From Octopus sinensis (Eukaryota): 64,000 nucleotides of DNA. A program made the position numbers. Positions 24,001-63,000 of this stretch are shown one piece after another. Location: NCBI RefSeq assembly GCF_006345805.1, contig NC_043026.1:12069579-12133578 (forward strand). The letters run 5' to 3'. The first letter of the stretch is position 1. Every line of letters begins with the position of its first letter.

Positions 24001-27000
24001 CACACAATTGATCAATGTATGATAAGAATTACACACTTCTCTAATCTACACTTCTCTAACTGCTTAGTTTGAAATTTACAATGAGAGGTTGCTATGAAGT
24101 GAATTGGAAATGAAAGATAACTGGACGTTGATAAAGCATGTTGCCAAGTAATTCACTGATTATATATAACAGTTTAAAAATCTTATATTAGGCGCAGGAG
24201 AGGCTGTGTGGTAAGTAGCTTGCTAACCAATCACATGTTGCCAAGTAATTCACTGGTAAGTAGCTTGCTAACCAATCACATGTTGCCAAGTAATTCACTG
24301 GTAAGTAGCTTGCTAACCAACCGCATGTTGCCAAGTAATTCTATGGTAAGTAGCTTGCTAACCAACCACATGTTGCCAAGTAATTCACTGGGTTCAGTCC
24401 CACTGCATGGCACCTTGGGCAAGTGTCTTCTGCTATAGCCTCGGGCCGACCAAAGCCTTGTGAGTCGATTTGGTAGATGGAAACTGAAAGAAGCCTGTCG
24501 TATATATGTGTGTGTGTGTGTGTCTGTGTTTGTCCCCCTAGCATTGCTCGACAACCGATGCTGGTGTGTTTACGTCCCCATCACTTAGCAGTTCAGCAAA
24601 AGACTCTGATAGAATAAGTACTGGGCTTACAAAGATGCGTGGCATCTTGGGCAAGTGTCTTCTGCTATAGCCTCGGGCCGACCAAAGCCTTGTGAGTGGA
24701 TTTGGTAGACGGAAACTGAAAGAAGCCTGTCATATATATGTATATATATATAAGTGTTTGTGTCTGTGTTTGTCCCCCTAGCATTGCTCGACAACCGATG
24801 CTGGTGTGTTTACATCCCCATCACTTAGCGGTTTGGCAAAAGAGACCGATAGAATAAGTACTGGGCTTACAAAAGAATAAGTCCCTGGGGTCGATATGCT
24901 CGATTAAAGGCGGTGCTCCGGCATGGCCGCAGTCAAATGGATGAAACAAGTAAAAGAGAAAAAAAAAAAGAAAAGATATGTGTGTGTGGATGTGTGTGTG
25001 CGTGTATATGCAAGAAAGGGGGCCTCACTTCAGTCATGAATGATCATAGGATTGCACCTAGAGAGTTACCCTCCGAGACAAAAGTCTGGGCTAGGTCGTT
25101 TATGGAAGACCAGCAATCACCCATGCATACCAGCTTCCTTTCTCCACACCACCAATATTGTCCAAGGGAAAGGCAAGGGCCGATACAGCTTGGCACCAGT
25201 GACGTCGCAACTCATTTCTACGGCTGAGTGAACTGGAGCAACGTGAAATAACGTGTCTTGCTCAAGAACACAACACAGAGCTTGGTCCGGGAATTGAGCT
25301 CACTACCTCATGGTTGTGATCTCAACACTGTAACCACTGAGCCATGCACCGTTATTTATATATATATATATATATAACACATATATATATACACACATAT
25401 ATATATCATACATATATATACATATATATATATATATATATATATATATATATATTATATATATATATACATATGTATATATAATATATATACATATATA
25501 TAATATATATACATATATATATATATATACATATATATATCTATATATATATATATATATATATATATATATATATAGATATATATATATATATATATAC
25601 TAAGCAATAAGGGTTTAGCAACGAATTGCCTTACCACATCCGAATTTAGAAATAGCACTCTTTGACTGCTATTTCTAATTCGGTATGTGGTAAGGCAATT
25701 CGTTGCTAAACCCTTTATTGCTTAGTATTACTTACTTAATTTTCCTCGAATGAGGCTTTTACATGCCGAAGACTACTTGGTGTAATTGATAATTATTCCA
25801 AATTAATTAATTTCACCCTTCATTATTATTATATATATATATATATATATGTATATATACATGTGGACGTAAATATATATATATATATATATACTAACAA
25901 TATAGGATGAAGTCCCTTTCTCTACAGAAAAGGATTCCATCAAAAAGCGTGGCAGTATATTAAAAAAAACCTTTACGGTTGAAGTAAAACATCTTATAAT
26001 TAAGGGCTAAAGAGGGTTATTCTAAAGCCAATACCACTGATTTATCCACTTATAATCCACTTGTTACAGGAAAATTGAACTGAAAGCGGGCAACTACCTT
26101 TAGTTGCCCGCTTCAGTTCAATTTTCCTGTAACAAGTGGATTATAAGTGGATAATCAGTGTATAGCCCTTAATTATAAGATGTATATATATATATTATAT
26201 ATATATATATATATATATATATATTTTGTGAAATAGAAAGATGAATAATCTTGTTGCAGATTAATCAAAAGTTTAACCGATACCTTGGTAGCAAAAATCA
26301 CAGCAGAAGACAGCACGGTTGGAGGTACAACCATATGGTGTTGCAACCATGCGTTGGTGCGGATATTGAATTTTAATATTATTAGTGAATTGAAGAAATG
26401 GAGTTGAACGAAGATTGAACAGAAATCGTTTTATTGCATTCTACACGTGTTTCGAAAGCTACAATTTACCAAATTCCGATTGAATAGGAGGCCATATTGT
26501 GTCTTCCTCTTCAGGAAGAAATAGGAAATCCGTTGGTCTCCTTATTCAATCGGAATTTGGTAAATTGTGGCTTTCGAAACACGTGTAGAATGCATATAAA
26601 CGATTTCTGTTCAATCTTCGTTCAACTCCATTTCTTCAATTCACTTATATATATATATATATATATAATATATATATATATATAATATATATATATATTA
26701 TATATATATATATATATATATAATATATATATAATATATATATACATATATATATATTATATATATATACATATATATATATATATACAGTGATACCTCA
26801 CTTTATGAGGACCTGCTTTACGAGACCCCACAAGAACCTGTGTCCACTATAACCTTCGAACAGGGGAGGTCAGCCGCTTTCCCTTGCTGGTCAGGCATCT
26901 GCAGACATGTTTCAGGGTATTTGCGCTTTGTCAATGCAGAGTAGGCAGACCCAGCAGGCATCACTGCCGACCGTCTGTTCAAAGGATTATTTACCTAATT

Positions 27001-60000: not shown

Positions 60001-63000
60001 GCCATCATTGAAAATTGGACGACTTGAACCTCTCTAATGCAATTAATATAATCAAAATTAATAAATTGGAATTGCTGTTGAAATTCAAGTTCCAAAAAGC
60101 TATTTCCATCATGACGACCACTCGGTTCAAAGTCTCCCTTGACCACAAATGGCATGAACACCACCCTGTACATAACTCCATGTACCCCTACATGGCCTTG
60201 CTTTTTCCTTTTTGAGCCAAAAAATTAGCTTAACTTAATCTTATTCTTATGATTCTTCTTAAATTTTCCACAATATTATAATGGATTTTATATTACCTAT
60301 TTATTTATATAATAAAATTTGCAAAACCAGCATTCCTTTTACTAATCTATATAATCTATATAAAGCTGAAGTTGTCTGTGTATGGCAGGTTTGGTAGCCT
60401 TCAACTAACACTATCTCCTCCAAGACCCTATGGTGCAAGTTGACCAAAATTAAGATTATGATAGAAGAAGGCTTGCTTTTCATTCCATAGAAGATAAAAT
60501 TCAAATCGAACATGTTAACACCAAAAATTATTTACATAAAAAAGGTGCTTTTTTTTTCTATGAAAATCCCTATTTTTTACTATTTATAAAGCTGAAGTTG
60601 TCTGTGTATGGCAGGTTTGGTAGCCTTCAACTAACACTATCTCCTCCAAGACCCTGCGGTGCAAGTTGACCAAAATTAAGATTATGATAGAAGAAGGCTT
60701 GCTCTTCATTCTGTAGAAGATAAAATTCAAATCGGACCATATTAACACCAAAAATTATTTACATAAAAAAGGTGCTTTTTTCTATGAAAATCTCTATTTT
60801 TTACGATATTTTTTTACTGCTGTGTCACCATTTTTTGGTGTATTTCAACCAGAAAAATGTTCACTTAAAGAGAATTGGCACACACACACACACAGGCACA
60901 TACAGATTCATTCAAAAGCCACATAATGCAAAATTTTTACTTTTTAAAAATTCCAATTCTAAAGGGTCGAAAAGAAAAGTAACCCAAGTAAGGATAAAAT
61001 TATTTTGATAATTTTCAGGTTTCTTCTTTTTTTTTGGTTGTTCAATTCTAGTGCCTCAACTTAAGTACCATATTCATCTGAAACTAAATTTTTGCTGAAC
61101 TCATCTACCATGGAAATTATAGTTGTGATACCTGTGCCGGTGGCACGTAAAAAGCACCAACCGATCGTGGCTGCTGCCAACCTCCCTTGGCACCTGTGCT
61201 GGTGGCACGTAAAAAGCACCAACTACACTCACAGAGTGGTTGGCATTAGGAAGGGCATCCAGCTGTAGAAACACTGCAAGATCAGACTGGAGCCTGGTGC
61301 AGCCTCCTGGTTTCCCAGATCCCCAGTCGAACTGTCCAACCCATGCTAGCATGGAAAGCGGACGTTAAACGATGATGATGAGGATTGATGTTCAGTGATT
61401 TCTTCATGATTCCATCTCTTTGTGTTTTTTTTTAGGCATGCTAGAAGCATTAGCCATGCAAGGTGGTAAAGGAGACAAAACTGATCTTTCAACAGTAGTT
61501 GCTCTTGTGGAAGCACTCCGTCAGTTACGACGATGAGGATTCCGGTTGATCCGAATCAACGGAACAGCCTGCTCGTGAAATTAACGTGTAAGTGGCTGAG
61601 CACTCCACAGACACGTGCACCCTTAATGTAGTTCTCGGGGAGATTCAGCATGACATACAGTATAAGAAGACTGTCCCTTTGAAATACAGGTACAGCAGAA
61701 ACAGGAAGTAAGAGTGAAAGAAAGTTGTAGTGAGAGAGTACAGCAGGGATCACCACCACCCCCTGCCGGAGCCTCGTGGAGCTTTTAGGTGTTTTCGCTC
61801 AATAAACACACAAGGCCCAGTCTGGGAATCGAAACCGCGAGTCCGCTGCCCTAACCACTGGGCCTCCACAGTTGCTCTTAATATGTTGTACTCTTCCCAA
61901 ACAGATTTGTCACATATTATGAGAGATCTGGGGTCAAAGTCAGATGAATAAAGAATGCACAACTTTCTAGCTTTTGAAAGAGCAACATAAGCCATTCTAT
62001 AAGAAAACATTTGAGTTGCCAAATCAGCTATTTGTTCCTTCTCGAGCCACGCCTGGCTCATAAGGGCTGGTTTCCCAGTTTCCTTGGTGTATAGGTTCCC
62101 CACCTGGACGGGGCACCGGTCCGTCGCAGGTGAGCTGCAAGATGCAGGAGGAAAGAGTGAGAGAAAGTTGTGGCGAAAGAGTCAGCAGAAGTTCGCCATT
62201 ACCTTCTGCCAGACCCACGTGGAGCTTAGGTGTTTCGCTCATAAACACACACATCGCCCGGTCTGAGATTTGAACCCGCGAGTCCGCTGCTCTAACCACT
62301 AGGTCATGTGCCTCCACAGCTATTACACTATACTCTTTACTCTTTTACTTGTTTCAGTCATTTGACTGCGGCCATGCTGGAGCACCGCCTTCTAGTCGAG
62401 TAAATCGATCCCAGGACTTATTCTTTGTAAGCCTAGTACTTATTCTATCAGTCTCTTTTGCTGAACCGCTAAGTTACGGGACATAAACACACCACCATCG
62501 GTGGTGGGGGGGACAAACACAGACACACAAACATATACATACATACTTCGCCATGTTGAATCGCTAGCTTCTGCACGCATTTTTTTCTCTCCTTGTTTCT
62601 CTCCGTGTTTCTTTTCTGTGTATCTTTCTGTTGAAGAGCGTAGGCTCGAAACGTAAAAGACTTGTTTTATTTATATTCCTGAGCGCCATACTAATAAAAT
62701 TGTTTGTTTGTACTCCACCTGCCTTCGTCTTTTGTTTATTTTCATAAAGCTTCCCGTTATATATATACATATATACGACGGGCTTCTTCCAGTTTCCGTC
62801 TACCAAATCCACTCACAAGGCTTTGGTCGGCCCAAGGCTATAGCAGAAGACACTTGCCCAAGGTGCTACGTAGTGGGAATGAACCCAGAACCATGTGGTT
62901 GGTAAGCAAGCTACTTACCACACAGCCACTCCTGCGCCTATCCAGACTAATTTCCTGTGATTGATGTATTGTGATTTCATTGACTGTTGAAATTTTTCTC

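Follow-up and report, generated by a model that had tools for sequence, protein, structure and literature searches.

The analysed window is a stretch of 64,000 nucleotides (nt) of the Octopus sinensis genome (assembly GCF_006345805.1, contig NC_043026.1, positions 12,069,579 to 12,133,578 of the forward strand). It is AT-rich, with a GC content of 0.32–0.47, and contains many TA microsatellites and tandem repeats, together with open reading frames (ORFs) for C2H2 zinc-finger proteins and for reverse transcriptases (RTs) of the long interspersed nuclear element (LINE) type. It also contains a group of motifs with the architecture of type I hammerhead ribozymes (Table 1), in which core positions 3 and 8 carry U-A in both copies of one repeat, G-C in six of the eight full copies of a satellite-like repeat (G/G and A/G in the other two) and C-G at five loci. 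The original prediction had read these motifs as three Watson-Crick identities of the 3-8 pair. According to our analysis, the alternation of U-A and C-G between homologous loci is genuine but already known from published work, and the G3-C8 motif of the satellite, in which the pair is broken in two copies, is the only potentially new item.

Table 1. Hammerhead-like motifs, the repeats carrying them and associated features of the window (positions counted from its first nucleotide)
Feature	Position	Strand	Remarks
Type I hammerhead motif, U3-A8 core	27319–27361	+	Descriptor match, fold, alignment
Inverted copy of the U3-A8 motif	26898–26940	-	Arms 95% identical; one C-C mismatch in helix II
Diverged relative, C3-G8 with U4C	59762–59807	-	Alignment of flanks and loop 2
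Tandem array with four G3-C8 motifs	45004–45682	-	Period 172–184 nt; motifs at 45631–45681, 45449–45499, 45277–45327 and 45093–45143
G3-C8 motif, plus-strand satellite copy	44676–44726	+	Unit runs on into a 3' tail to about 44869
G3-C8 motif copy	41659–41709	+	C-A mismatch in helix II
Satellite motif copy, G3/G8	41825–41875	+	3-8 pair broken
Satellite motif copy, A3/G8	43993–44042	+	3-8 pair broken; 1-nt deletion in helix II
5'-truncated satellite copy, 4210–4354 (145 nt)	4196–4368	+	Between two copies of the 14-nt repeat TATTCCCTCATTTT
Second 5'-truncated satellite copy	11227–11345	+	Starts about 9–10 nt upstream of the predicted cut site
Single-copy motif, canonical CUGAUGA...GAAA core	44306–44353	+	Helix I of 7 base pairs
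Motif like a minimal hammerhead, A6U	62623–62660	+	Single-copy in the window
Loose candidate	26439–26517	-	CUGAAGA, 54 nt, GAAAC, palindrome ACACGUGU, A; helix I of 3 base pairs
Loose candidate	37351–37433	+	CUGAAGA, 60 nt, GAAAC, palindrome ACAUAUGU, A; helix I of 2 base pairs; single-copy in the window
(TA)n tract	26646–26787		Between the 26380–26649 palindrome and the element holding the U3-A8 motifs
Assembly gap	27599–27698		Sole run of N in the window; adjoins the right arm of the U3-A8 inverted repeat

The best supported of the window's motifs is a Schistosoma-like family of three loci. Its motif at 27319 has a helix I of 6 base pairs (bp), a helix II of 4 bp (AGGG/CCCU) closed by the loop 2 sequence CAAAUA, the palindrome ACAUGU as helix III and C at position 17; it shows no defect, and its minimum-energy fold retains helices I and II with a z score of -3.1. 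Both U3-A8 motifs named in the original prediction are present, the one at 26898 with its single helix II mismatch. The third locus, 59762, is single-copy in the window and lies 32 kb from the U3-A8 pair; it has the loop 2 sequence CAAUGA and a helix III of 3 bp with a 3-nt loop, and, with its U4C change, it is probably dead. The three loci align over 64–68 nt and have in common a CUAC-UCU 5' flank, helix II AGGR/YCCU, a loop 2 of 6 nt (CAAAUA or CAAUGA), GAAAC and an AGA-UGC 3' flank. We regard 27319 and 59762 as homologous, because the unpaired features common to them lay outside the search descriptor. Pairing holds in 41 of 42 cells of the alignment, and 5 of 14 pairs are altered on both sides (three in helix I, one in helix II and the 3-8 pair itself, U-A vs C-G); when the partners were slid by 1–3 columns, no double-sided change was found. 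This covariation is only suggestive, because it comes from three sequences, two of them near-identical. A covariance model built from the three loci (R1) gave 88.4 bits to the locus at 26898, which is itself in the training set, and revealed no further family member when run over the whole window with filters off. The next best match, 27238–27270 (14.5 bits), was rejected, being merely flank at a repeat junction.

By their sequence and layout, these loci are homologous to the canonical metazoan hammerheads, with U3-A8 in one lineage and C3-G8 in another. The canonical architecture comprises a helix I of 6 bp, a helix II of 4 bp and a helix III of 1–2 bp with a small palindromic loop (PMC4209133); 27319, 26898 and 59762 resemble the Schistosoma-type hammerhead and the animal retrozymes in their 6-bp helix I, 4-bp helix II and 6-nt loop 2. 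The Schistosoma hammerhead has the loop 2 sequence CAAAUA and the internal loop 1 UCCA:GUAC (PMC2632901), and the octopus motif carries the same CAAAUA and a UAC 5' of helix I at an equal distance from the core. In contrast to the Schistosoma type, two of the octopus copies have a U3-A8 core and the third has U4C, and Rfam models give these loci no score. The short or palindromic helix III and the low-GC host DNA with tandem and inverted repeats are likewise features of animal retrozymes; in contrast to these, only about two U3-A8 units are assembled, and they lie beside a gap. The U3-A8 variant itself is not new: its natural covariation was published by Perreault et al. (2011; PMC3088659), and U3-A8 variants (about 1,300 matches) were described among the hammerheads of Penelope-like elements (PLEs) in Schistosoma mansoni (Cervera and de la Peña, 2014; PMC4209133). 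As in the former report, C3-G8 is swapped for U3-A8 with the remaining core intact; the difference is that other organisms were concerned there, whereas here an octopod repeat has a C-G relative 32 kb away.

The element that hosts the U3-A8 motifs (26790–27598) begins directly after the (TA)n tract and is built from three segments (together about 350 nt) that recur in direct and inverted orientation, nested in one another. The junction of segments A and B in this element, 5 nt from the predicted cut site, was judged too loose and was not used. The inverted repeat with the U3-A8 pair (27029–27556 vs 27591–27054, 81.6% identity) extends, by our reading, to the edge of the assembly gap, and therefore its right end and any further copies are unread; the DNA 3' of the gap appears by eye to be unrelated to it. 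Since the arms are 82–95% alike and not identical, a simple fold-back assembly artefact is disfavoured. No motif crosses the gap, the closest one (27319–27361) stopping 238 nt upstream, and no claim on the motifs needs continuity across it, so the caution attached to the gap in the original prediction does not affect what follows.

The second family is satellite-like, with G3-C8 as its consensus. Its unit of about 150 nt plus (TA)n, with a GC content of about 0.32, is represented by four tandem copies on the minus strand, four copies on the plus strand and two 5'-truncated copies. The tandem copies are 92–98% alike, and each retains the whole core and G3-C8. N3 of the G3-C8 copies lies at 41666 and 44683 on the plus strand and at 45674, 45492, 45320 and 45136 on the minus strand; all six copies predicted between 41659 and 45681 are present, and two full copies with an unpaired 3-8 position (41832, G/G; 44000, A/G) had been omitted. 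Those two copies (41825 and 43993 in Table 1) are most likely dead. The motif has a helix I of 7 bp (UUUGUCA/UGACAAA), the core GUGAACA followed by an unpaired G, a helix II of 5 bp (GUCGC/GCGAU or GUCGC/GUGAC), GAAA, the palindrome AAUAUU and U at position 17. G10.1 is paired with C in four copies and with U in four.

Three hallmarks of PLE minimal hammerheads have been put forward against a random origin: an extra nucleotide after A9, the G10.1 pair and a palindromic helix III (PMC4209133). The satellite has all of them, with a G as the unpaired nucleotide between A9 and 10.1 and a palindrome at 15.2–16.2, and so does the motif at 62623 (bulged A, G10.1-C11.1 and ACGU). Both resemble PLE minimal hammerheads in the extra nucleotide, the G10.1 pair (C or U), the palindrome at 15.1–16.1 and the lack of a loop 3, and both would be expected to act as dimers. 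Unlike those hammerheads, they occur in a window with no identifiable PLE ORF or pseudo long terminal repeat (pLTR), and G3-C8 as in the satellite is unreported in the accessible part of PMC4209133. The satellite also agrees with the animal retrozymes, described as tandem repeats of about 170–400 nt with type I hammerheads (Cervera and de la Peña, 2020; PMC7229834), in unit length, in one type I motif per unit and in low GC. A reading of the satellite as a short interspersed nuclear element (SINE) derived from a transfer RNA (tRNA) was rejected as being without support, the ARAGORN search for tRNA having found none.

Tolerance of the hammerhead to exchanges at 3-8 was reportedly described by Przybilski and Hammann in 2007. 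The C3G/G8C double mutant (Martick and Scott, 2006) retains part of the activity, including in the Anolis PLE hammerhead (PMC11167929, PMC8495972). Its letters at positions 3 and 8 equal the satellite consensus, the difference being that it is a laboratory mutant, and G3-C8 is mentioned elsewhere only as an engineered form (PMC3884650). A natural G3-C8 hammerhead family was not found in our literature search, which covered a limited set of articles apart from the supplements of PMC4209133 and PMC7229834, where mollusc or G3-C8 cases might be listed.

The remaining motifs carry C-G at positions 3 and 8. The motif at 44306 has a helix II with a U-U mismatch at its base, 3 bp and a GUAA loop, a helix III of 4 bp with a 3-nt loop, and A at position 17. 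At 62623, one extra nucleotide (A) follows A9, G10.1 pairs with C11.1, helix III is the palindrome ACGU and position 17 is A; with A6U, this motif is most likely dead. The two loose candidates, 26439 and 37351, possess a complete core despite their short helix I, and the CUGAAGA of the former lies at the centre of the 26380–26649 palindrome. The five C3-G8 cores of the original prediction accordingly exist as letters, but each is flawed (U-U at 44306, U4C at 59762, A6U at 62623, and 26439 and 37349 detectable by the loose model only), and its figure of about eight different repeats was loose, with 37349, 44306, 59762 and 62623 being single-copy in the window. The invariant letters (U4 G5 A6, A9, G12 A13 A14, A15.1-U16.1 and non-G17) are intact at 27319, 26898, all eight satellite copies, 44306, 26439 on the minus strand and 37351; the core letters are broken at 59762 and 62623.

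The motifs were counted with descriptors of different tolerance. The first, set before the sequence was looked at closely, specified a helix I of at least 4 bp, the core N3-UGA-N-N8-A, a helix II of at least 3 bp, GAAA, a palindromic or hairpin helix III and a position 17 other than G; it gave two matches in the window, 27319–27361 (+) with U3/A8 and 44676–44726 (+) with G3/C8. The second also permitted an unpaired nucleotide after A9, typical of PLE minimal hammerheads, and gave seven flawless matches, namely 27325, four G/C satellite copies and the G/G and A/G satellite copies. When one defect was permitted, three C-G motifs were added (44313, with U-U at the base of helix II; 59801 on the minus strand, with U4C; and 62628, with A6U), along with one other Watson-Crick match (2166, minus strand) and three non-pairing matches. 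Only a loose model, in which helix I could be as short as 2 bp and helix II could span up to 75 nt, caught 26439 and 37349. The three-helix layout with an open-ended helix I follows from the descriptor matches, and minimum-energy folds retain helices I and II in all seven RNAs. Helix III is palindromic in six of the eight motif groups when 59762 is counted separately from its U3-A8 relatives, in agreement with the prediction that small palindromic stems prevail; such a helix cannot close within a single molecule. Among the counted descriptor classes, it was palindromic in five of seven Watson-Crick groups vs 19 of 119 shuffle matches.

Chance expectations were obtained from dinucleotide-preserving shuffles inside 2-kb blocks, 400 for the classes and 2500 for a helix I of at least 6 bp. 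For C-G with one defect, the shuffle mean was 0.19 vs three real motifs, and none of the 400 shuffles reached three. For other Watson-Crick pairs with no defect, it was 0.092 vs two independent real families (probability of two or more, 0.0025; this value and the one given for the loose model are optimistic, because the descriptors were widened to the bulge and the first-pair mismatch after candidates had been seen). With one defect, the other Watson-Crick class gave 1.37 vs one real match and the non-pairing class 4.1 vs three. The excess is therefore confined to classes in which positions 3 and 8 form a Watson-Crick pair, since the non-pairing count does not exceed that of the shuffles, and the density of motifs noted in the original prediction holds in this restricted form. 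With a helix I of at least 6 bp, the shuffles gave 0.048 matches per window with any 3/8 letters and 0.013 with Watson-Crick letters, and a Watson-Crick match with a palindromic helix III turned up in 2 of 2500 shuffles. In a control that used the real sequence, with its inverted repeats kept, there were 813 structural candidates, of which 18 match five of the seven invariant letters, one matches six and seven match all seven; position-wise letter frequencies predict 0.014 full matches, and the seven form an outlier group. The loose model found two C-G motifs vs 0.20 expected (probability of two or more, 0.017) and four independent non-pairing ones vs 4.47. That all of this is chance, and that no motif has hammerhead ancestry, would fit the lack of an Rfam match at any threshold and the later tuning of the descriptors; against it stand the shuffles, the real-sequence control, the covariation test, the loose-model count and the flanks and loop 2 common to 27319 and 59762, and we consider it highly improbable.

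We think it fairly probable that the window contains insertions of small non-autonomous retroelements carrying type I hammerheads, of the kind of PLE repeats and animal non-LTR (long terminal repeat) retrozymes, mostly at or near TA microsatellites. The setting resembles that of retroelements because of the association with TA tracts, a copy with a target-site duplication and the microsatellite preference of PLEs. A TA tract lies within 121 nt of the motif in four of seven families, and about 10% of window positions are that close; PLE-type elements prefer microsatellites and make tandem and inverted arrays (PMC8557442), and it has been argued that animal retrozymes stem from PLE flanking repeats (bioRxiv 10.64898/2026.07.22.740005). 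PLEs have been annotated in Octopus vulgaris (PMC13282606), and 235 Rfam hammerhead-1 matches have been reported for the giant squid (PMC6962438). The 14-nt repeat flanking the truncated copy at 4210–4354 represents the target-site duplication; no other direct repeat of 10 nt or longer occurs in that stretch of 271 nt. The insert begins at (TTTT)GACAAAUU. Cutting is predicted between the third and fourth U of this T run, and the 5' end of the insert fits the predicted cut within five possible start positions in an element of about 211 nt, which is also our estimate of the chance of such an agreement. This copy is a hint on the cut site, which the start of the second truncated copy does not share.

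Under this interpretation, the transcript of a repeat would fold into the three-helix hammerhead, its short palindromic helix III would be built by the pairing of two copies, and the RNA would cut itself 3' of position 17; the unit-length RNA could then be copied back into DNA by an RT supplied in trans. We infer the self-cleavage, the use of dimers and the mobilising enzyme from the layout of the repeats. For the G3-C8 satellite motif, we lean toward hammerhead ancestry, judging from the sequence, while its present activity seems doubtful. It is only tentatively that the 172–184 nt repeat can be proposed as a natural G3-C8 hammerhead cutting in vivo, probably as a dimer via its palindromic helix III, which would make it the first natural case of a third Watson-Crick identity.

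Several results weigh against this interpretation. A search of the whole window with Rfam cmscan, at the gathering score and at E ≤ 10, gave no hammerhead family, nor did searches at E ≤ 10 of the segments 44280–44760, 26380–27420, 59700–62700 and 45000–45700 (481–3001 nt); the matches obtained were low-complexity and microRNA-like. By the standard of curated models, this silence is a genuine negative result for hammerhead membership. Because no Rfam hammerhead match appeared at any threshold tried, it also means that standard annotation would miss these loci, and the claim that searches for CUGANGA alone overlook the variants is confirmed and extends to Rfam. No Penelope RT or GIY-YIG domain was found in the 28 of 38 ORFs of at least 120 amino acids (aa) scanned with Pfam, the other ten (mostly zinc-finger by eye) and all shorter ORFs being left out of the scan; RVT_1 occurred in two LINE-like ORFs only and GIY-YIG in none, and the scanned ORFs thus gave no sign that a motif lies in the pLTR of an element encoding a PLE RT and a GIY-YIG endonuclease. 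In the satellite, the 3-8 pair is broken without compensation in two of eight copies, the motif is no better conserved (9 of 51 columns variable) than the downstream sequence (11 of 81), and helix III would consist of six A-U pairs. The unit at 45284–45455 on the minus strand folds at -28 kcal/mol with a z score of -0.07, no better than shuffles and with no rod-like stability, whereas retrozyme circles are described as highly self-paired (PMC7229834). The second truncated copy, at 11227–11345, has its 5' end upstream of the predicted cut and showed no flanking direct repeat. Finally, the basis is a single 64-kb window, read as DNA only. The proposal of a self-cleaving retroelement or circular-RNA system retains its retroelement-like setting; its circular-RNA part finds no support in the unremarkable fold of the unit, and the scanned ORFs showed no Penelope domains. 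The letters at 3-8 are able to pair in the satellite consensus and in the U-A/C-G covariation, but not in every satellite copy.

Some of these points would also suit an alternative that we consider rather unlikely, namely that only the Schistosoma-like family, perhaps with 44306, derives from real hammerheads, and that the G3-C8 satellite, 62623, 26439 and 37349 are look-alikes produced by AT-rich DNA with inverted repeats, leaving nothing beyond the known C-G/U-A covariation. The satellite represents one independent event whatever its copy number, its 3/8 letters are unpaired in two copies, and its fold is unremarkable. It shows no extra conservation: besides positions 3 and 8, the nine variable motif columns comprise seven in helix II or loop 2, and the invariant letters, helix I and helix III are free of variation. 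Selection inside the motif was rejected as an explanation, since four of the seven changes in helix II and loop 2 are CpG transitions, and a pattern that mutation bias can produce was not counted as constraint; CpG decay accounts for the variation. Among the other candidates, 26439 occupies the middle of a palindrome, where a stem forms automatically, and it and 37349 require a helix I of only 3 and 2 bp, respectively. Rfam, too, is silent. The look-alike explanation is opposed by the rarity of a flawless Watson-Crick match with a helix I of at least 6 bp (0.013 per window by chance, or 0.014 full matches from the real sequence), by the excess of loose C-G motifs (two vs 0.20), by the satellite's bulged nucleotide and G10.1, which lay outside the first descriptor, and by the target-duplication copy that begins at the predicted cut site.

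A further possibility, less likely than not, is that all the motifs are fossils of hammerhead elements, none of them active, and that the non-canonical 3-8 letters represent decay that happens to pair. U4C at 59762, A6U at 62623, the G/G and A/G satellite copies and the helix II mismatches at 26898 and 41659 agree with this, as do the absence of an autonomous partner among the scanned ORFs of the window and the dating of the Octopus Penelope-like expansion to about 56 million years ago (PMC13282606). On the other hand, the four tandem minus-strand copies remain highly alike with the whole core and G3-C8 in each, 27319 is without any defect, and decay would rarely yield a Watson-Crick 3-8 pair in two families while the non-pairing classes show no excess.

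Among the neighbouring features, two copies of a segment of about 540 nt lie 2 kb from each other (41104–41640 and 43182–43978, 81–94% identity), each ending in (CA)n joined to a satellite copy, and the satellite copy at 43965 seems to have arisen by recombination between the adjacent units at 41630 and 41795. The most frequent element of the window, by a wide margin, is a SINE-like repeat of about 330 nt, found at about 20 places in copies that are 80–95% identical (for example, 45954–46270, 6580–6910, 10677–11014 and 58662–58979); some copies contain internal tandem units of 62–67 nt (49984–50155, 54634–54808 and 55508–55696). A 106-nt unit is repeated 11 times in tandem at 31332–32463 (92% matching), where the descriptors gave no hammerhead-like motif, and a minisatellite with a 20-nt unit occupies 42994–43167 (8.7 copies, 96% matching).

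Long ORFs at 2290–3651 (-) and 8493–10145 (+) encode multi-finger C2H2 zinc-finger proteins of 453 and 550 aa, which fit the large octopod zinc-finger families. The region 33719–36871 (+) is occupied by a long tandem repeat (periods of 120, 163 and 240 nt) whose translation consists of repeated zinc-finger linker pieces with phenylalanine instead of the second cysteine and without the helix part; part of a C2H2 zinc-finger exon seems to have expanded here into a satellite. The LINE-type ORFs with RVT_1 lie at 38069–39754 (+) and 28292–29520 (+), the longer one having a PHD-like cysteine-rich tail and the second being split over two frames. An intact ORF of 303 aa at 19439–20350 (-) carries an ISXO2-like DDE transposase domain (PF12762) and shares 70% identity with a protein of Octopus bimaculoides and 57% with one of O. 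sinensis; it represents a family of the bacterial insertion-sequence type inside an animal genome.

The CUGANGA core, directly or through models trained on it, is the basis of hammerhead censuses, and motifs with a complete architecture in this window escape both them and Rfam. The U3-A8 part of our results provides an octopod example, with a nearby C-G relative, of a published variant, which is useful though not new. Should the satellite be unable to cleave, the window would amount to an unremarkable cluster of hammerhead-bearing repeats in decay. If it does cleave, the classic C3G/G8C rescue experiment would have a counterpart in nature, the influence of the 3-8 pair's identity on activity could be studied in a simple natural system, and the search space for ribozyme-bearing retroelements would become wider. 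An active G3-C8 satellite, together with its U3-A8 and C3-G8 relatives within the same 36 kb, would mean that the 3-8 pair of the hammerhead is freely swappable in nature.

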